Positions 25,604-33,316 of a stretch of 64,000 nucleotides of DNA are shown piece by piece. Source of the stretch: Actinomycetota bacterium (GTDB lineage: Bacteria > Actinomycetota > AC-67); the NCBI GenBank assembly GCA_036397635.1, contig DASWIP010000080.1:37792-101791 (forward strand). The letters run 5' to 3'. A program made the translations under genes and the position numbers. The notes under the pieces are model-generated. The model was not told where the DNA came from. It ran no database searches and saw only the letters and a program-made list of their open reading frames with translations. Numbering within the stretch: position 1 is the stretch's first letter; each line of letters opens with the position of its first letter.

Positions 25604-25819
25604 ATGGCGATGCTGCTGACGATTTTCACGTACCGCCTCTGGCTGAGCGCTCGCCTTAACCTGCGCTCCGAGCGCGGAGCGACCGCGCTGGAGTACGCCA
25701 TCGTCGCCGCCGGGATCGCAGCGGTCGTCGTGCTGGCCGTAGCGCTGCTCGGAGGGGCGACCAACTCCGACTTCGCCTGCACCGCCGAATCCTGGGAGAC
25801 TCGAACCGAACGCTGCTAG
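25604..25819 (+). CDS. Flp/Fap-family type IVb prepilin (orphan)
   Basis: '...RSERGATALEYAIVAAGIAAVVVLAV' matches the Flp processing motif (G/xTAxEY) followed by the hydrophobic helix. No tad/cpa genes within the window. Confidence 0.5.
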   Translation: MAMLLTIFTYRLWLSARLNLRSERGATALEYAIVAAGIAAVVVLAVALLGGATNSDFACTAESWETRTERC

Positions 25820-26463
25820 CTCCCCTGCGTCCGGAAGTACGCAAACACTTGTGCGAACAGCTGCTTGGCGTCATCGGGAAGCTCGACATGTCCCCCGAGC
25901 AGCTTGGCAGCGATGAAGACCTGCGCCGTCCGTTCGACCTCGCGCGCTACCAGCATCGCCTTGGACAGATCCCGGCCGACCGCGACCAACCCGTGCGAGG
26001 CGAGGAACGCAGCGTTGCTGGTCTCGCCGAGCGCCGCCGCCACGTTGTCGGCGATCTCCTGGGTCCCCGAGATCGCGTACTCCGCGACCCGAACCCCGTC
26101 GCCGACGTAGACGCCGAACTCGTCCAGGAACGCGGGGAGTGGAACGCGCGCGGCCGCGAACGCGCTCGCCCAAGTGGGATGTGCGTGGATGACCGCGCCG
26201 ATGTCCTCCCGGAACCCGTAGCACGCCAGATGCACCTTGTGCTCGACCGACGGCGCGCGCGCGCCCTCCAGAACGGTTCCCTCCAGGTCCATCAGGATCG
26301 TGTCGTCGGGCGTGATCTCCGCATAGGGGATCGACGAGGGCGTGATGATCACGCCCTCGGGCACGCGCGCGCTGACGTTGCCGGAGGTGCCGACGGTGAG
26401 GCCGCGGTCCTCCATCTCACGGCCGGCGCGGGCGACGGCTTCGCGCTGCTCGAGATAGCGCAT
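25816..26463 (-). CDS. Class II aldolase/adducin-family protein
   Basis: 'GTSGNVSAR', and Zn-ligand His context 'VIHAHP'. 216 aa. Start ATG at 26463 lies 2 nt after the kinase stop. Confidence 0.8.
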   Translation of the reverse strand: MRYLEQREAVARAGREMEDRGLTVGTSGNVSARVPEGVIITPSSIPYAEITPDDTILMDLEGTVLEGARAPSVEHKVHLACYGFREDIGAVIHAHPTWASAFAAARVPLPAFLDEFGVYVGDGVRVAEYAISGTQEIADNVAAALGETSNAAFLASHGLVAVGRDLSKAMLVAREVERTAQVFIAAKLLGGHVELPDDAKQLFAQVFAYFRTQGS

Positions 26464-26465
26464 CG

Positions 26466-27926
26466 TCACATCAGGTCTCCGATCCGTAGAGTCCCGGTCT
26501 CCAGCGCGGCATGCTCGCGCCACGCGGCGTAGTGCGCAGGGTAGCCGTCGGCGGCGCGCGGAGCGACGTCGTGTCCGCGATCGTGCATCGCCTCAGTCGC
26601 CGACTCGACGCCGCCGTGGTGAGCCGACGCGGACACGATCGCGGCGCCGAGGGCCGACGAGGCGGGCTCGACGGCGACGCGAACCGGCTCCTCGCCGGAT
26701 CCCGCCAGCGCCGCCGCGACGACGCCCGAGCGCGCGACGCCACCGGCCAGCGCCAGCGAGCGGTGCTCGCCGAGCCACTCGAGGCCGGCGCGCGCGCCGA
26801 ACGCGACGCCCTCGAAGACCGCGCGCAGCACGTCCGCGCGCGGGCGACCGAGCGCGAGCACCGGCGCGGGGAACGACAGCGCAGCGCGACGCACCAGCGG
26901 GAAGTTCCCGATGTCGCTGGGCCGCGGGTCCACGAACACGACGCCGCCGGCGCCGGGCACGCCCGTCTCGGCTTCCGCGGCCAGCGCGTTCACGTCCGTC
27001 GCCAGCACACCCCCGAGCCAACTCAGGAGCGCGCCGGCCTCACCGCAGTGCGCCTCGCGCACCCATCGGCCCGTCATCGGATGCGGCGAGCGCCACAGGC
27101 GACCGGCCGGATCGGCTGTGGCATCGGCGGTGACCACCTCCGCGATCATCGTGTTGCCCGCCACGACGATCGCGTCACCGGCGTCCCGAACCCCCATGGC
27201 CAGCGCCGCCGCCTGGGTGTCGGCGCCGCCGGACACGACCGGGATGCCCGCCGGGATGCCGAACCGCTCGCTCGCGGAAGCGCGCACATCCCCGACCGCG
27301 TCCCCGACCGCGCGCACCTCCGGCAGCACGCTGTGGGACACACCCAGCGCCTCGAGCAGCTCCTCGCTCCACGCATCGGCCGCGATCTCGTACACGAGCA
27401 GCTCGGCGGCCTGGGTCCGCTCGGTCGCGGCGATCCCGGTCAGCTCGTAGACGACCCAGTCCGCGAGTGAGAGCGCGTGCGCGACCCGGGCGGCGTCGTC
27501 CGGCGCGTTCTCGCGCATCCACGCCAGCCGCGCCGGCAGATACAGCATCGCGGGGAGCCGCCCGTTGATCCGGTAGATGCGCTCGCCGTGCACGCGCTGC
27601 TGCTCGATCCCTTGGGCGACCGCGCGCCCGTCCGCGTTGGGTCCCACCAAGATCGGCGCGCCCTCGGCGTCGAGCAGCGCGACGCCGCTGCGCTGCGAAC
27701 AGACCCCGATCGCCGCGATCGCACCGGCATCGCACCTCGACACCGCATCGCTCAGCGCGGCGGCGACCGCCGCGAGCGCATCGCCCGGCTCGAGGTCGGT
27801 GAGCCCGTGCTCGTTCGTGCGGTAGCGCCATGCATGCTCGGCGGCGGCGACGCGGCGACCTCGCTCGTCCACGATGAGGCATCGGGCGCCGCCGGTCCCG
27901 ACGTCGACGCCGGCGAACAGGGTCAC
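26466..27926 (-). CDS. FGGY-family carbohydrate kinase
   Basis: N-terminal 'LFAGVDVGTGGARCLIVD' and C-terminal FGGY fold, 486 aa. Confidence 0.75.
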   Translation of the reverse strand: MTLFAGVDVGTGGARCLIVDERGRRVAAAEHAWRYRTNEHGLTDLEPGDALAAVAAALSDAVSRCDAGAIAAIGVCSQRSGVALLDAEGAPILVGPNADGRAVAQGIEQQRVHGERIYRINGRLPAMLYLPARLAWMRENAPDDAARVAHALSLADWVVYELTGIAATERTQAAELLVYEIAADAWSEELLEALGVSHSVLPEVRAVGDAVGDVRASASERFGIPAGIPVVSGGADTQAAALAMGVRDAGDAIVVAGNTMIAEVVTADATADPAGRLWRSPHPMTGRWVREAHCGEAGALLSWLGGVLATDVNALAAEAETGVPGAGGVVFVDPRPSDIGNFPLVRRAALSFPAPVLALGRPRADVLRAVFEGVAFGARAGLEWLGEHRSLALAGGVARSGVVAAALAGSGEEPVRVAVEPASSALGAAIVSASAHHGGVESATEAMHDRGHDVAPRAADGYPAHYAAWREHAALETGTLRIGDLM

Positions 27927-28921
27927 GTCGAGGCCCGCAGAACCTCGGGGTTGACGACGCTGGACGGCACCTCGCCGGCGAGCACTGCCTCGAGCCCATC
28001 GGCGATCTGCGCCGTGTGCGTCTCGATCGTCTCCACCGTCGTCCCGCCGATGTGGGGGGTCAGCACCACGTTGGGCATCGACGTGAGCGGATGATCCGCC
28101 GGCAAGAACTCGTGGTGGAAATGATCCAGCGCCGCGCCGGCCAGCCGTCCATCTGCGAGCGCGTCGAGCAGCGCCTGCTCGTCGGCGATGTCGTAGCGCG
28201 CGGTGTTGACGAAGTACGAGCCCGGTCGCAGCCGCGCGAAGATCGCAGCGTCAAGCATCCCTCGTGTTGCGTCGTTCAGCGGCGCGTGCACGCTGACGAT
28301 GTCCGAGGCCTCGAACAACTCTCCCGGTGAGCCGACGGGCTGGACCCCGCCGGCGCGCATGTCGTCCGCATCGATCATCGGATCGGAGGCGAGCACGCGC
28401 GCTCCAAGCGCCAGCAGCTTGCGCGCGGTCGCGCGCCCCACGGCACCGAACCCCACCAGTCCGACCGAGCAGCTGCGTAGCTCTCGCCCTCGGTACCGCT
28501 GCTGCGCGATGCGCTCGTCGACCACCCACCGGCCGGCACGCACATCGTCGTCTGCGGCCACGATCGAACGCAGCAGTGCGAGCATCAGCGCGACGGCCAG
28601 CTCCGCAACGCCCTCCGCGTTGCGGCCCGGCGTCCGGATCACCGTGACCTCGCGGCGCGTCGCGGCGGTCATGTCGACGTTGTTCGGATCGCCGCGACAC
28701 ACGCACAGGAACCGCAACGACGAGCCCTCGAAGACCTCAACCGGGATGAAGTCGGCCTCGACGATCAACACATCCACACCCGCAAGCCGCGCGAGCAGCT
28801 CGCCGGCGGCGTGCAGCTTGATCGGGACGTGATCGATCCACGGGTCGAGCTCCAGATCCCCGAGCGCGCGCAACCGAGCCAGCGCCGGGCCGGCGAGCGG
28901 AGCGAGCGACAGGATCCGCAC
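27923..28921 (-). CDS. D-isomer-specific 2-hydroxyacid dehydrogenase (NAD-binding)
   Basis: 'GLVGFGAVGRATARKL' Rossmann motif and catalytic 'HIGGTT'. GTG start at 28921. The upstream ORF extension is low-complexity. Confidence 0.8.
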   Translation of the reverse strand: MRILSLAPLAGPALARLRALGDLELDPWIDHVPIKLHAAGELLARLAGVDVLIVEADFIPVEVFEGSSLRFLCVCRGDPNNVDMTAATRREVTVIRTPGRNAEGVAELAVALMLALLRSIVAADDDVRAGRWVVDERIAQQRYRGRELRSCSVGLVGFGAVGRATARKLLALGARVLASDPMIDADDMRAGGVQPVGSPGELFEASDIVSVHAPLNDATRGMLDAAIFARLRPGSYFVNTARYDIADEQALLDALADGRLAGAALDHFHHEFLPADHPLTSMPNVVLTPHIGGTTVETIETHTAQIADGLEAVLAGEVPSSVVNPEVLRAST

Positions 28922-29000: not shown

Positions 29001-30035
29001 ATGCGGAAGATCGTCAAGCGAGTCGTGCTGGGACTGCTCACGCTCGCCGTGCTGTTCGCCGGGCTGGTCGCGTACCTGGCGATCAGCACGCCGGGCCCGC
29101 GCGAAGCTTCGGCGTGGGAACGCTTGCCCGACCTGCCGCGGCCGCGCGGCGAGTTCGCGGCGGCGGTCGGCGCGCGCGTCGGCGACTGCCCGCCCGAGAA
29201 CCCCGCGTGCGTCGCGTCCCCGGTGCGCTTGTTCGTGATGGGCGGGCTCGGCGGTCTGGGCAGGACGATCGATGCGGTCGACATCTACGACCCGGAGGAT
29301 CGGTCCTGGTCCGCCGGACCGGCGCTGCCCGAGAAGCGCCATCATCCCGCCGCGGCGGGATGGGGAGGACTCGTGTATCTGAGCGGTGGTTCGACGTCCT
29401 CGACGGACTGGACGCCTTTGGCCAACCTGTGGGCGCTCTCTCCGACGGGGGACGCGTGGGAGCAGCTCACGCAGATGCCCGAGGGTCGCATGGGCCACAA
29501 GATGATCGCCCTCGACGGGAAGCTGTTCGTCGTGGGTGGGCGAGGCGAGAGTTCGAACGTCCTGATCTACGACATCGCCCAGCGAGCGTGGAGCATCGGG
29601 GCCGAGATGCCGATCCCGCGCGATCACCTCGCCTCCGCGGTCGAAGGCGCGCGCATCTACGCGATCGGGGGACGCGACAACGATCTGGTCGCGCGCGTCG
29701 ACGTCTACGACACGGCGACGGATTCGTGGACCGAGGGGCCGTCGCTGCCCGAGCCGATGAGCGCGATGGCGGCCGGCACGCTCGACGACGGACTCCACGT
29801 CGTCGGCGGAGAGGATCCCGGCACGTTCGGCGGCGGGGTCATCGACCGCCACTACCACCTGCTGCCGGGAGCGCAGACATGGCAGGAAGCTCCCCTACCG
29901 ATCGTGGCGACCCACGGCAGCGCGAGTGCCGTGCTCAGCGACAAGCTCGTGATCGTGGGCGGCGCGCGCCGGCAAGGGGCGCTCTCACCGCTCGGGTGGA
30001 CCGGGATCGTCCAGGTCTACCCGAGCGGCGAGTGA
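29001..30035 (+). CDS. Kelch-repeat protein with N-terminal membrane anchor
   Basis: N-terminal TM segment, then repeated Kelch blades ('LFVMGG', 'LFVVGG', 'IYAIGG', 'LHVVGG', 'LVIVGG'). Confidence 0.75.
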   Translation: MRKIVKRVVLGLLTLAVLFAGLVAYLAISTPGPREASAWERLPDLPRPRGEFAAAVGARVGDCPPENPACVASPVRLFVMGGLGGLGRTIDAVDIYDPEDRSWSAGPALPEKRHHPAAAGWGGLVYLSGGSTSSTDWTPLANLWALSPTGDAWEQLTQMPEGRMGHKMIALDGKLFVVGGRGESSNVLIYDIAQRAWSIGAEMPIPRDHLASAVEGARIYAIGGRDNDLVARVDVYDTATDSWTEGPSLPEPMSAMAAGTLDDGLHVVGGEDPGTFGGGVIDRHYHLLPGAQTWQEAPLPIVATHGSASAVLSDKLVIVGGARRQGALSPLGWTGIVQVYPSGE

Positions 30036-30069
30036 TCCACCTCGGTGGCGTCCAGGCGGGCACGCTCGG

Positions 30070-31083
30070 TCAAGCGTGTACGCGCGCGCGCCGCGCGACG
30101 AGCAGCGCGAGCGCGGCCAGCAGCACCGTGATGCTGCCCCACCCTGTTGCTCCCGCTTGGGCCGCCTGCTCCGCAGCCGTGACCCGGGCGAGCGCAGCGG
30201 AGACCATCTCCATCGGCACGCCGGCGGCGAGCAACCTGCGCACCGCCTCGGTCCGCAGCGCGACCGTTTGGGCGCGAGCGACGTCAGCGGGTGCCATGTC
30301 CGGCCCACCGTCGCCCGGGAGCGGGCCGTCGCCCTCGCCGGGGCAGATCGGGTTCCCACTGCCGCGGCGGTTCTGGTAGCCGCACAGGTACAGCTCGGGG
30401 TCCTCGAGGATGCGCGGGATGTACTCCTGCGAGTCGGCCATCTGCTCTTCGGTATAGGCCTGATCGAACGGTCGGATCACGTGGTACTCGTCGATGCAGG
30501 CGACGATCGGCACGATCACGCCGCACGCGTTGTGATCCATGATCGTCAGCCCGACCTGGGTGTCGGTCATCCCGTCGTCGCAGTACTTGCTCTCGTGCTG
30601 AGAGGCGAGGCAGACATCGACGTAGGTCGCGCCGCCGTGCTTGTCATGAACGCTCTCGCCGTAGCGCGCGTCGTGGTCCGAGCAGTCGTGCGCGAACTCG
30701 AACAGGAAGCAGTGGCTGGCAGCGAAGCCGGCGTGCATCTCATTCGGCCCATCTTCGCCATACCGAGGGAACGTGCTGTTGCCCGCATCGACCCATGCGC
30801 AGTTCTGGTTCGACTCGTAGCTGCCGTCCTCACGGTAGTACGAGCACTCGTCACGCCAGCGCTGCGCGTCCTTGCGCTGCTCCCCGTCGTCTCGATCCTC
30901 GAGGTCGAACAGCGGAACATAGTTGCCGTCCCGCCAGTTCGGCGCTGCGGGAGACTCGTGGCACTCGACCTGGTTTCCCTCACCCCGCTCTTCCCCGTCG
31001 TAGGTACACTCGTGAGCTTGGGCGCGGCCGAAGCCGAGCATGGTCACGGCCAGGACCGCGAGCAGCAACATCGAACGCTTCAT
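30070..31083 (-). CDS. Secreted Cys-rich acidic protein with C-terminal TM anchor (hypothetical)
   Basis: Signal peptide 'MKRSMLLLAVLAVTMLGFGRAQA'. At least 16 Cys, many Asp/Glu/His. C-terminal hydrophobic tail 'ITVLLAALALLVARRARV'. Confidence 0.55.
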   Translation of the reverse strand: MKRSMLLLAVLAVTMLGFGRAQAHECTYDGEERGEGNQVECHESPAAPNWRDGNYVPLFDLEDRDDGEQRKDAQRWRDECSYYREDGSYESNQNCAWVDAGNSTFPRYGEDGPNEMHAGFAASHCFLFEFAHDCSDHDARYGESVHDKHGGATYVDVCLASQHESKYCDDGMTDTQVGLTIMDHNACGVIVPIVACIDEYHVIRPFDQAYTEEQMADSQEYIPRILEDPELYLCGYQNRRGSGNPICPGEGDGPLPGDGGPDMAPADVARAQTVALRTEAVRRLLAAGVPMEMVSAALARVTAAEQAAQAGATGWGSITVLLAALALLVARRARVHA

Positions 31084-31095
31084 GGTTACCCCCTC

Positions 31096-32658
31096 CTAGC
31101 CCAGCACCCGGAAGGCCCAGATGCCGCTCAGATCATCCAGCGGGAGTCCTTGTTCGGTCGTCCCGCTTCCGATGTACAACGAGTCCCCGACCAGTGCGGG
31201 GGCCGACGACGGCGCGCCGTTGAGCGGCACGCGCCGAAGCAGCACACCCGTATCGGCGTGGAAAACATTGATGGCGAAGTCGACTGTTGAGGGCACGAAC
31301 ACGACGCCGTTGGCGTAGGTCGGTGCGCCGTAGGACTGCCGCGACAGCGGCGAGCGCCACAGGATCCGCCCGTCCGCGGCGCTGAGCGCGTGGATCGACA
31401 ACATGCGCAGCGGATCCTCGAGCAGCGACGGGTCGGGCTGCTCCTCGCTGAACGGGGTCGAGATCGCGGTCGTGGCGAACACCGCAGGCTCGCCGTTCAC
31501 CTCGCCGAGCGCCGTCGTGCCGATGATGCCGCCGATCGAGAAGTCCGAGTTCACGCGGCCGGACTGGCCCGGATGGGCCGTCCAGGCCTCCTCGCCGGTG
31601 ACCCGATCGCGAGCGTAGTACCAGCCGTCCTTGCTGCCTTCGCCCACCAGACCGCCGGGCAGCAGGTTCGGGGAGGCGCCGAAGTCGTCGTCGAAGTGGC
31701 GGCTCTCGCTGCGCTCGCCTCGCGGGTCGTACTGCCAGCGGTAAGCGCCCGACGTCAGGTCGATGCCCCACATGGACTCGCCGCTGGTCGGGCCGTCGCG
31801 GCTGCAGCTCGCTGTTCCGAAGAAGACCATGCCCGCTTCGGTGTCCACCGCCGGCGAGGACCAGACGCCGCCGCAGCCCTGCCCGGTCCCGTGCCCGTAG
31901 GTCAGCGGGTCGGTCGTGTAGACGTAGCCGTCCTCACCGTCCTTGTTCTCGTCGGTCGTGTAAGAAAGCTCAGCCTCGGGGTCGAACTTCCAGATCGCCT
32001 CGAGTGTCCATGGCTCTCCGGGCTCCAGCCGCACCGCGAGGATCCCCGTCCGCCCGACGTTGGCTCGGTTGTGGACGTCGTGGCCGACGACGATCCACGT
32101 CTGTTCGCCGACCTCGACGATCGCCGGGGAGGACAGGATGTCGATGTCGGAGTCGGACCCCTCGCACCTCGGTTCGCTGTGCGCGCGCGGATCGGTGCAC
32201 AGGCTCGCCAGGATCGAGCCATCGTCCGCGTCCAGAACGTAGAGCGTCGAGCCGCCTGGGATCACCACTACACGCTTTCCACCCACGTCGCTCACCGCGG
32301 CGGAAGCGACGATCTTGCCGACGTAGTTCCGGTTCCCATCCGGGATCTCGAAGATCCAATCGATCTCGCCGGTCTCGGCGTCGACCGCATACAGGGGCCC
32401 TGCGTTCGCGCCGACGTAGACCACGCCGTCGACGACGCTCGGCGATGCGGTCACCGGGCTGCCGGTCTCGACGTACCACTTGGGCGCGAGCGTCGGCGCG
32501 TTCAGGGGCGTGATGCTCGAGCAGCTCTCTGGTGCCGCGAACGTGCGGCCGAGGTCCCGGCCGTACATCGGCCAGTCGCATTCGACATCCGCGCGTGCGC
32601 CGGCGACGCTCAGTACCAGCGCGAGGAGCGCGACCGAACCACCTACCCTGCGGCCCAT
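31096..32658 (-). CDS. Secreted PQQ-like beta-propeller repeat protein
   Basis: Signal peptide, then repeated 'G.VY.G...G.LYA.DA.TG...W' blades typical of PQQ/BamB-like propellers. 520 aa. Confidence 0.7.
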   Translation of the reverse strand: MGRRVGGSVALLALVLSVAGARADVECDWPMYGRDLGRTFAAPESCSSITPLNAPTLAPKWYVETGSPVTASPSVVDGVVYVGANAGPLYAVDAETGEIDWIFEIPDGNRNYVGKIVASAAVSDVGGKRVVVIPGGSTLYVLDADDGSILASLCTDPRAHSEPRCEGSDSDIDILSSPAIVEVGEQTWIVVGHDVHNRANVGRTGILAVRLEPGEPWTLEAIWKFDPEAELSYTTDENKDGEDGYVYTTDPLTYGHGTGQGCGGVWSSPAVDTEAGMVFFGTASCSRDGPTSGESMWGIDLTSGAYRWQYDPRGERSESRHFDDDFGASPNLLPGGLVGEGSKDGWYYARDRVTGEEAWTAHPGQSGRVNSDFSIGGIIGTTALGEVNGEPAVFATTAISTPFSEEQPDPSLLEDPLRMLSIHALSAADGRILWRSPLSRQSYGAPTYANGVVFVPSTVDFAINVFHADTGVLLRRVPLNGAPSSAPALVGDSLYIGSGTTEQGLPLDDLSGIWAFRVLG

Positions 32659-32716: not shown

Positions 32717-33148
32717 TCAGGAACGCGGCGTCATGTCGAGGTCGGGGGGCGGCACGTCGGGAACCTTCCATCGCAGGAAGGACTTGTCGTAGAGATCGTG
32801 GTAGGCGTTCGCCTGTGTCACCATCGCTGCGAACGCTTCCTCGAACGCCTCCCAGTCGGCGTCGTCGATCGCCTTTCGGACTGCCTCGACCTCGGTCGAG
32901 CAGAACGCATCGACGTTGTCGGAGTACTTCGGCCGCAGGAAGGCGCCCTTCTGCAAAAGGTTGACGGCCTCTTTCAACTGGAAGCGCGCCAGCGGCTGGT
33001 TGCGTGCCTTGCCGGCGTAGTAGCACTTCCAGATCCGCTCGCCGACCAGCGGCATCACTTCGGCCATGCCCGGCAGCAAAGGTCCCAGGTCGTCCAGCGA
33101 GAACGAACCCTTCCCGGTATCGATGATGTGGTCGTGCTGCTCGGTCAT
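32717..33148 (-). CDS. Hypothetical protein
   Basis: 144 aa from the ATG 'MTEQHDHIIDTGKGSF...'. Coding-like composition, no motif recognised. Confidence 0.4.
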   Translation of the reverse strand: MTEQHDHIIDTGKGSFSLDDLGPLLPGMAEVMPLVGERIWKCYYAGKARNQPLARFQLKEAVNLLQKGAFLRPKYSDNVDAFCSTEVEAVRKAIDDADWEAFEEAFAAMVTQANAYHDLYDKSFLRWKVPDVPPPDLDMTPRS

Positions 33149-33221
33149 CTCCAGCCTCCAGATCCGTGCTCGCGAGCAACGATACGCGGCAGCCCGGCGC
33201 GGGCACCAACCACGAGGCGCG

Positions 33222-33316
33222 CGCCCGCACCGTCCCCGCGCACCGGCACCACCCCCGCGCACCGGCACCACCCCCGCGCGCCGGCACCGTCCCCGCGCGC
33301 CGGCACCACCCCCGCG
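33222..33316. repeat. Tandem repeat, 5 x 19 bp (c[ag]ccggcacc[ag][ct]ccccgcg)
   Basis: Units at 33222, 33241, 33260, 33279 and 33298. Lies in the divergent intergenic region between 32717..33148 (-) and 33534.. (+). Degenerate GCGCGCC-rich copies follow to about 33440. Confidence 0.8.

Follow-up and report, generated by a model that had tools for sequence, protein, structure and literature searches.

A previously undescribed family of Actinomycetota surface proteins with an invariant post-signal histidine: candidate metalloproteins facultatively linked to a PQQ-like propeller

An N-terminal histidine following a signal peptide chelates transition metals irrespective of the protein fold (PMC12537917, PMC10952591). 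Once exposed, this residue forms the foundation of the copper histidine brace (PMC10952591), and searches for new metalloproteins of unrelated folds have recently been built on it (PMC12537917); DUF4198, DUF6702, Ang-1 and Ang-2 were found by 'signal strapping'. In this study, we analyzed a stretch of 64,000 nucleotides from an Actinomycetota bacterium (GenBank assembly GCA_036397635.1, contig DASWIP010000080.1), hereafter the window, and focused on three adjacent genes encoding a Kelch protein, a middle protein that we name CRP, and a propeller with pyrroloquinoline quinone (PQQ)-type repeats. We propose, with a probability of roughly 0.4, that CRP is a surface-tethered, disulfide-stabilized metalloprotein of a new family, in which the N-terminal His and a set of His and Asp residues would chelate a transition metal, most likely copper, and which would serve as the metal or redox partner of the propeller where the two genes are co-transcribed.

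The described proteins with which CRP can best be compared are the histidine-brace and N-terminal-His proteins, namely the lytic polysaccharide monooxygenases (LPMOs) of families AA9-AA17, CopC, YcnI, the CuB site of PmoB, DUF4198, DUF6702, Ang-1 and Ang-2. Like them, CRP has an invariant post-signal His and further invariant His residues, of which H146 and H149, among others, are candidates for the second His of a brace, and it is secreted or surface-bound. Unlike them, it gave no match to an Ig-like, FnIII or cupredoxin beta-sandwich fold and belongs to neither the LPMO nor the CopC families. By analogy, CRP would thus be closest to these proteins in its working principle, while being a member of none of their families.

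In all full-length members of the CRP family, the N-terminus consists of a basic n-region, a hydrophobic h-region and a small-x-small motif with A or G at -1, after which comes His-x-Cys. The His, residue 24 in the window protein, was found in 64 of the 64 sequences having an N-terminus. It is kept even in P0067 (32% identity), which lost the adjacent Cys pair. According to the -3/-1 rule, from which the cleavage site was deduced, this invariant residue would become the first of the mature protein, as it is in histidine-brace proteins. The signal peptide itself had gone unmentioned in the first-pass annotation of this DNA. Further downstream, the invariant residues in the core of the protein are mostly His and Asp (H117, H124, H132, H137, H146, D147, H149, D156, D174, D183, H184, D198, E199 and H201). 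H124, H132, H146 and H149 are present in all 66 sequences, as are D147, D156, D174 and D183; H137 and H184 are found in 65 of 66 and H117 in 64 of 66, and D198 and E199, together with D207, in 65 of 65. Three tryptophans (W50, W76 and W97) are invariant in an alignment of 58 sequences and at least 90% conserved in a wider alignment of 67.

The cysteines behave in another way. The most divergent members of the family (P0061, P0062, P0065, P0067 and P0074, 26-47% identity) keep the His and Asp residues and lose Cys pairwise: C125 and C134 are jointly missing from five sequences, C158 and C168 from two, and C26 and C41 from one. Because they vanish in pairs, the Cys can be read as structural disulfides, six in number, which would link sequence neighbors (26-41, 80-95, 125-134, 158-168, 187-196 and 234-247). 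With Cys lost in pairs and His/Asp kept, the functional residues would therefore be the His/Asp set and not the Cys, and on the same ground we rejected metal binding by Cys of the kind seen in Cu(I) storage proteins and type-1 copper sites. The first-pass annotation had suggested metal or redox binding by this protein; the conservation pattern agrees with that suggestion, by way of His and Asp rather than Cys. From the invariant post-signal His and the His/Asp set, and given the precedent of other N-terminal-His proteins, we infer that CRP binds metal at the cell surface, where it is anchored, through an N-terminal-His chelate. The count of invariant ligand-type residues suggests that it may bind more than one metal ion, or a metal next to catalytic residues.

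In its composition, CRP has 12 Cys, 12 His and a total of 54 Asp and Glu. The acidic character, the His content and the C-terminal transmembrane (TM) tail of this 337-residue protein are therefore as first annotated, while the Cys number 12 and not at least 16. A regular-expression search found neither CxxCH nor CxxC in its sequence, in agreement with the earlier reading that no heme motif is present, and CRP consequently does not qualify as a c-type cytochrome. An AlphaFold2 model of the full-length protein places helices at residues 265-286 and 291-311, between the core and the TM segment. A C-terminal TM segment with a basic tail of this kind occurs in 14 of about 60 family members. The charges of the CRP tail are positive-inside and no LPxTG/LAxTG-like sortase motif is conserved in the aligned tails of the anchored subgroup, so that we read the tail as a plain C-terminal TM anchor, probably not sortase-linked. 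In two members (P0060 and P0063), three C-terminal SLH domains stand in place of the TM tail (Pfam SLH, 5e-15 and 7e-18), and the remaining members stop after the core. This domain content points to a protein that would work outside the cytoplasmic membrane, either tethered or free.

To what extent the family is isolated was apparent from every search. A word-indexed search of 5.8 billion proteins returned 58 clusters matching CRP (E from 7e-140 to 2.8e-46). Those with an organism name all came from metagenome-assembled genomes (MAGs) of Actinomycetota, and none had a Pfam domain; the locus scan added Acidimicrobiia and Acidimicrobiales to the hosts. The exact CRP sequence has already been deposited as a hypothetical protein (locus tag VGB52_10000). 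An exhaustive hidden Markov model search of 1.84 billion cluster representatives gave only 25 matches, all inside the CRP family, and revealed no CRP-propeller fusion; the only fusions found were to SLH domains and to a Cys-rich tail. Neither Pfam nor NCBIfam matched the window CRP, Pfam gave no consistent match across all 58 members even at E<=5, the family profile matched nothing at E<=10 among all PDB sequences, and the predicted structure had no fold match among solved structures. Assignment to a known family was rejected on these empty Pfam, NCBIfam and PDB profile searches. CRP is a small, previously undescribed family of extracytoplasmic proteins from uncultured Actinomycetota, and its fold is predicted to be new, unlike any solved one. 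As far as sequence can tell, the novelty would lie in a new family and a predicted new fold built on the known N-terminal-His principle.

Two variants of the family deserve mention. The very divergent P0067 and P0074 have lost most of the disulfide Cys, keep the His/Asp set and have gained a Cys-rich C-terminal extension. In a subgroup formed by P0031, P0032, P0035, P0039 and P0043, a Lys/Ala/His-rich insertion of 30-45 residues (for example GGKGHDGPHK...) is located right after the N-terminal His-x-Cys (alignment columns ~40-95). L018, the sole locus inspected for this subgroup, has no adjacent propeller.

The gene immediately upstream of CRP had been annotated as encoding a secreted PQQ-type propeller of 520 residues, and both its Pfam matches and its N-terminal signal peptide (MGRRVGGSVALLALVLSVAGARA, followed by D) support this description. 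PQQ_2 was matched at E=2.9e-23 and PF01011 at E=2e-19. The latter match, with 70.2 bits against a gathering threshold of 26.7, identifies a PQQ-repeat domain; its best stretch, residues 29-359, corresponds to positions 1-336 of the 595 in the profile. Judging from its length, the propeller probably has eight blades. It did not reach the level of any more specific family: scores were 37.7 and 33.4 bits for the PQQ alcohol dehydrogenase/glucose-type models TIGR03075 and TIGR03074 (cut-offs 480 and 833), 46.2 bits for the BamB equivalog TIGR03300 (cut-off 285, E 2.5e-12) and 31 for TIGR04528, the acido-empty-quinoprotein group A (cut-off 650, E 8.6e-8). A profile built from seven propeller orthologs matched solved quinohemoprotein alcohol dehydrogenases (ADHs) at 2e-21 to 6e-18. 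Invariant motifs specific to this clade are KFDPE, GCGGVW, FGTxxC, D323-x-D325-F-G and KDGxYY.

Dehydrogenases of the methanol/ethanol type are characterized by a vicinal Cys-Cys disulfide over PQQ, and in PQQ dehydrogenases W-D-[FY] provides the catalytic Asp and G-x-G-N the metal-ligand Asn. The propeller Cys are at positions 27, 46, 154, 165, 262 and 285, no two of them adjacent, and the vicinal pair is therefore absent from its sequence. Its D323-D-D325-F-G stretch aligns with the catalytic-Asp motif E-W-D-Y-T of the Gluconobacter-type ADH 8gy2; in the alignment to 1kv9 and 1yiq the same motif is offset by six residues, and the GTGN position of 1kv9 reads GTAS in the propeller. With 'empty' quinoproteins (TIGR04528) and BamB scaffolds, the propeller shares PQQ-type repeats, weak similarity and the possible lack of PQQ. 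It differs from both in scoring far under the cut-offs, in having its own invariant motifs and in its Actinomycetota hosts. Actinomycetota are monoderm and, to our knowledge, have no outer-membrane BAM machinery. Two propeller homologs (L025:2113-4890 and L027:3896-6670, 46% identity) carry an extension of about 400 residues that ends in a PEP-CTERM sorting signal, which would imply that an exosortase puts them on the surface, in another and probably diderm lineage.

Quinoprotein dehydrogenases are known to work with small partners, as in MxaF/MxaI with cytochrome cL or in PQQ-ADH with azurin or a cytochrome. The CRP-propeller pair resembles these systems in combining a secreted PQQ-repeat propeller with a co-transcribed, small, secreted and plausibly redox-metal partner. 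It differs from them in the lack of a heme motif, the lack of nearby pqq genes and the optional pairing, and CRP is unrelated to MxaI, cytochromes and cupredoxins. A precedent for such a pairing comes from fungi, where a secreted PQQ dehydrogenase, the AA12 pyranose dehydrogenase, can drive histidine-brace copper enzymes, the LPMOs (PMC5960967); the likeness of our pair to this system is one of analogy only.

All three open reading frames (ORFs) lie exactly where they had been placed by the first-pass annotation. We consider them real genes because their G+C content of 0.86-0.89 at the third codon position, against 0.47-0.54 at the second, fits a genome of about 70% G+C, the value of the window. 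The dN/dS ratios were below 1 for all three genes (0.36-0.56 for CRP against three orthologs), an indicative and merely supportive result as dS was near saturation. The gap of 12 nt between propeller and CRP, both on the minus strand with the propeller upstream, was confirmed by direct reading, and it contains the ribosome-binding site (RBS) of the CRP gene (Table 1). Propeller and CRP would thus be co-transcribed in this genome. The Kelch gene lies on the opposite strand, convergent toward the CRP gene, and is therefore not in the CRP transcript. A promoter/terminator scan of the locus was uninformative: it detected no sigma-70-like promoter sites and two terminator-like matches inside the Kelch gene.

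Table 1. Features of the CRP locus in the window, and loci of the T2 family (last two rows; positions given by locus)
Feature	Position	Strand	Description and basis
Kelch gene	29001..30035	+	344 aa, membrane-anchored six-blade propeller; Pfam Kelch_1
CRP gene	30070..31083	-	337 aa
Putative C-terminal TM anchor of CRP, W315-A330	30094..30141	-	followed by basic tail RRARVHA; hydropathy
Linker and stalk of CRP, residues 251-314	30142..30333	-	Pro/Gly-rich linker and predicted helical stalk; anchored subgroup only; alignment
Conserved core of CRP, residues 24-250	30334..31014	-	beta-rich domain, six sequential Cys pairs
His24 codon of CRP	31012..31014	-	predicted first mature residue, candidate N-terminal metal chelator
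Signal peptide of CRP, residues 1-23	31015..31083	-	MKRSMLLLAVLAVTMLGFGRAQA; hydropathy; predicted cleavage after A-Q-A
Intergenic spacer propeller/CRP	31084..31095	-	12 nt, holds RBS GGAGGGGG of the CRP gene; sequence read directly
Propeller gene	31096..32658	-	520 aa, secreted PQQ-like beta-propeller
143-aa ORF	32717..33148	-	good RBS; 58 nt upstream of propeller, same strand
T2 genes	L021:3010-3915, L023:3028-3936, L053:3069-3974, L044:1139-2065, L022:45-761		
Further T2 loci	L049-L052, L068, L069, L071, L081, L086		

We then compared the gene order with that of related loci. In about 11 distinct loci, CRP and a propeller ortholog are direct same-strand neighbors separated by a short spacer. 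The propeller precedes CRP in five of them (the window, L003, L005, L017 and L034) and follows it in six (L013, L014, L015, L019, L038 and L039); L034, L038 and L039 came from a propeller-centered scan and the other pairs from the CRP-centered search. Among loci with called coordinates and the propeller-then-CRP order, the 12 nt of the window compare with same-strand spacers of 14-22 nt in L003, L005 and L017. The wider neighborhoods differ among the paired loci, L019 for instance lying among sulfur-transfer genes. The co-occurrence of the Cys-rich gene with propeller genes elsewhere, on which the first-pass annotation had made its proposal depend, was thus not refuted, with 58 clusters and about 11 paired loci in both orders.

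A second unannotated secreted family, which we name T2, was found next to propeller homologs in the metagenome scan described below. Its members are acidic, about 300 residues long, with eight Cys and the motif GADDNLDxGEHDSS. T2 adjoins the propeller homolog in 14 of the 79 loci, upstream in 13 and downstream in L050, and never occurs together with CRP; a MaoC dehydratase gene follows it in six of the 14. Neither Pfam nor NCBIfam contains a family for T2. Homology between CRP and T2 was not demonstrable (hhalign probability 17-20%) and was not retained. That this propeller clade repeatedly gained a small secreted partner gene gives modest independent support to a propeller-plus-partner mode of working.

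Taken together, our favored explanation would run as follows. CRP would be exported by a Sec-type signal peptide, whose cleavage would bare the invariant His as residue 1. To judge from domain content, it would be retained at the surface by the C-terminal TM anchor here and by SLH domains in some relatives, and released in others. The core of about 225 residues would be stabilized by the six sequential disulfides suggested by the paired Cys losses, and the N-terminal His, six or seven other invariant His and several Asp/Glu would constitute one or more transition-metal sites. Copper would be the likeliest metal by analogy with the histidine brace. Where paired, CRP and the propeller may contribute to one process at the surface, in which the quinoprotein-like propeller would have CRP as its metal or redox partner; in this weakest step, CRP could take up or donate electrons, or act as an oxidative center fed by the propeller. 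A bolder form of this explanation, which we consider doubtful, would see in CRP the founder of a structural class of its own, histidine-brace-like metalloproteins with an N-terminal His, many further His and a fold unseen in the PDB, acting at the Actinomycetota surface as the copper or other metal redox partner or oxidative center of the propeller, with T2 in the same role in other lineages; such a pair would be, by analogy, a bacterial cytochrome-free counterpart of the fungal PQQ dehydrogenase that drives a histidine-brace enzyme.

Several observations weigh against coupling of CRP to the propeller, or against the simple chelate. CRP occurs without the propeller in four loci where both flanks are present (L001, L008, L012 and L018); L007, L009 and L010 also show CRP without a propeller, their downstream flank being cut off. 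Reciprocally, when metagenomes were scanned with a profile of CRP-linked propellers, CRP adjoined only 6 of the 79 propeller-centered loci, and it was missing beside propellers 49-57% identical to that of the window. This reciprocal scan led us to reject an obligate CRP-propeller pairing. The proposal that the Cys-rich protein is a companion of the propeller is accordingly upheld by the recurrent adjacency, but as a facultative association: the link is real but optional. Since the named hosts are all Actinomycetota MAGs, part of the adjacency also goes back to common descent of these genes as one syntenic block (thiolase - propeller - CRP - Kelch - 2-hydroxyacid dehydrogenase - FGGY kinase - aldolase). 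Of the genes examined up to about 15 kb away, none was a pqq, cytochrome c or copper-handling gene. The propeller may be without PQQ altogether, considering the lack of a vicinal Cys-Cys, the scores far under family cut-offs and the ambiguous alignment of the catalytic Asp. Finally, eight His and seven acidic residues exceed the needs of a simple chelate, and a multinuclear hydrolase would fit too.

The last point leads to the idea that CRP works alone, as an extracellular metalloenzyme with an environmental or cell-wall substrate, such as a multinuclear hydrolase using Zn, Mn or Fe, or an oxidase; its adjacency to the propeller would then be inherited synteny without coupling. So many invariant His and acidic residues point to a catalytic site, possibly multinuclear, more readily than to a carrier, and the N-terminal residue is a ligand in the trinuclear-zinc P1 nuclease and phospholipase C. 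The propeller-less CRP loci and the many propellers without CRP would agree with an independent enzyme, and display through SLH or TM anchors is common for exoenzymes. However, the adjacency is kept in both orders and in unrelated neighborhoods such as that of L019, which drift is unlikely to preserve easily; moreover, inspection of the CRP alignments by eye showed no hydrolase motif such as HExxH, and neither a family nor a fold was matched. We regard a stand-alone enzyme as possible, if rather on the unlikely side.

CRP could also be a surface protein for metal capture or buffering, which would feed a scarce metal to transporters or secreted enzymes in the manner of 'anglerase', CopC or YcnI, the propeller being one possible client. 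An N-terminal His chelate is common to CopC, YcnI and Ang-1/Ang-2/DUF4198 (PMC12537917; 10.1101/2021.06.11.448128). The membrane or wall anchoring of CRP, the subgroup with a Lys/His-rich insertion after the N-terminal H-x-C and the variable neighbors of CRP, including a chromate-transporter-family permease downstream in L001 and L002, would be in line with this role. Against it, neither metal transporters nor metalloregulators are consistently linked to CRP in its loci, and a large, rigid and highly conserved core with many invariant residues exceeds what known carriers need. This explanation appears unlikely to us.

The first-pass annotation had grouped the three genes as a cell-surface trio, and a single functional module would be in keeping with the export or anchoring of all three products and with the recurrence of the order propeller - CRP - Kelch in L005, L017 and L034. 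In these three loci, however, the entire syntenic block is shared, its proteins being 49-74% identical, and the Kelch gene lies on the other strand. Kelch occurs with the propeller and without CRP in L040, L041, L046 and L082, and is missing from every CRP locus that lacks a propeller (L007, L009 and L010 being without a downstream flank); in L001 and L009, CRP adjoins the 2-hydroxyacid dehydrogenase gene with no Kelch between. The more constant backbone is propeller - D-2-hydroxyacid dehydrogenase, into which CRP and then Kelch may be inserted: the dehydrogenase directly follows the propeller in L029, L031, L033, L035-L037, L094 and L095, and follows propeller and Kelch in L040 and L041, whereas in L046 and L082, where Kelch directly follows the propeller, the contig ends before any dehydrogenase. 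Because CRP and Kelch behave as independent optional inserts in the syntenic block, the trio did not survive as a unit, and Kelch was rejected as a module member on strand and on independent presence or absence; we hold a joint module to be very improbable. Least probable of all is a two-subunit dehydrogenase in which CRP, as the light subunit, bears the cofactor and the propeller is the scaffold, as in the methylamine (MADH), aromatic amine (AADH) and quinohemoprotein amine (QHNDH) dehydrogenases with a tryptophan (TTQ) or cysteine (CTQ) tryptophylquinone, since, although in MADH and AADH a small six-disulfide subunit carries the Trp-derived quinone, the architecture of a beta-propeller gene beside a co-transcribed, disulfide-rich, secreted 12-Cys partner is analogous and W50, W76 and W97 are conserved, no MauA, MauB or QhpC homology was detected (Pfam and NCBIfam for MauA and MauB; Pfam at E<=5 on 58 members), the surrounding 15 kb or so contain no mauG-like di-heme or radical-SAM gene for maturation, pairing is not obligate, the CRP core of about 225 residues contrasts with small subunits of about 80-130 (MauA being half as large as CRP), and the propeller falls into the PQQ-repeat rather than the MauB class.

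The Kelch protein is an independent neighbor outside the operon, and the Kelch and PQQ-like genes are ordinary by themselves. As originally annotated, it is a plus-strand Kelch beta-propeller with an N-terminal TM anchor, on which Pfam and hydropathy agree. Kelch_1 matched in four stretches (E=2.5e-35, 120 bits against a cut-off of 20.1), and Kelch_6, Kelch_2 and Kelch_4 likewise exceeded their Pfam cut-offs; these tandem motifs above the gathering threshold define a Kelch-repeat beta-propeller. PDB sequence matches were to the Kelch domains of KLHL proteins and Keap1 (E down to 1e-41). Pfam NANM was narrowly passed (50.5 bits, cut-off 45), and assignment as an N-acetylneuraminate epimerase/YjhT failed (36.5 bits for TIGR03547, cut-off 256; 40.3 bits for NF010730, cut-off 416). 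The N-terminal hydrophobic segment, at about residues 8-28 by hydropathy, is read as a signal anchor because its ~21 residues are too long for a cleaved signal peptide.

Other features of the neighborhood were recorded. The 143-aa ORF upstream of the propeller lacks a signal peptide and could not be placed in any Pfam or NCBIfam family. With no family and being missing from all 98 related loci, it was rejected as a part of the system and looks like a lineage-specific insertion at the operon head. Between this ORF and a divergently transcribed thiolase-like gene, the intergenic region contains a 19-bp tandem repeat (consensus CGCGCGCCGGCACCACCCC, window 33218-33316, 5.2 copies, 88% matches), which could represent regulator-binding sites or a slippage-prone tract. 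The surroundings comprise genes for acyl-CoA and lipid metabolism, a branched-chain amino-acid ABC transporter, two P450s, a 2-hydroxyacid dehydrogenase, an FGGY kinase and a class II aldolase. The D-2-hydroxyacid dehydrogenase gene region (window 25816-28900, minus strand) shows 64-67% identity across loci, and the dehydrogenase follows the secreted propeller even where propellers are only about 30% identical. This linkage of a cytoplasmic dehydrogenase to a secreted propeller is more constant than that of CRP and is unexplained; FGGY kinase and class II aldolase genes are also found in the three closest loci. In one CRP locus without a propeller, the same-strand gene that begins 55 nt past the end of CRP encodes the permease of the chromate-transporter family (L001:8835-10022, L002:1672-2859).

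The weight of CRP is limited by the narrowness of its family, by a putative function read from sequence patterns and by a facultative link to its neighbor. Should the coupling to the propeller prove false, the analysis would still be useful in identifying the 'trio' as an artefact of synteny. N-terminal-His sites underlie LPMOs, particulate methane monooxygenase and copper trafficking, and new families of this kind have repeatedly shown unexpected chemistry. With a confident predicted structure, a dense set of invariant His and Asp residues and clear TM or SLH anchoring, CRP is a tractable target as a candidate metalloprotein. If it does work with the propeller, it would show how the periplasm-less Actinomycetota may wire extracellular quinoprotein-type oxidation without c-type cytochromes.

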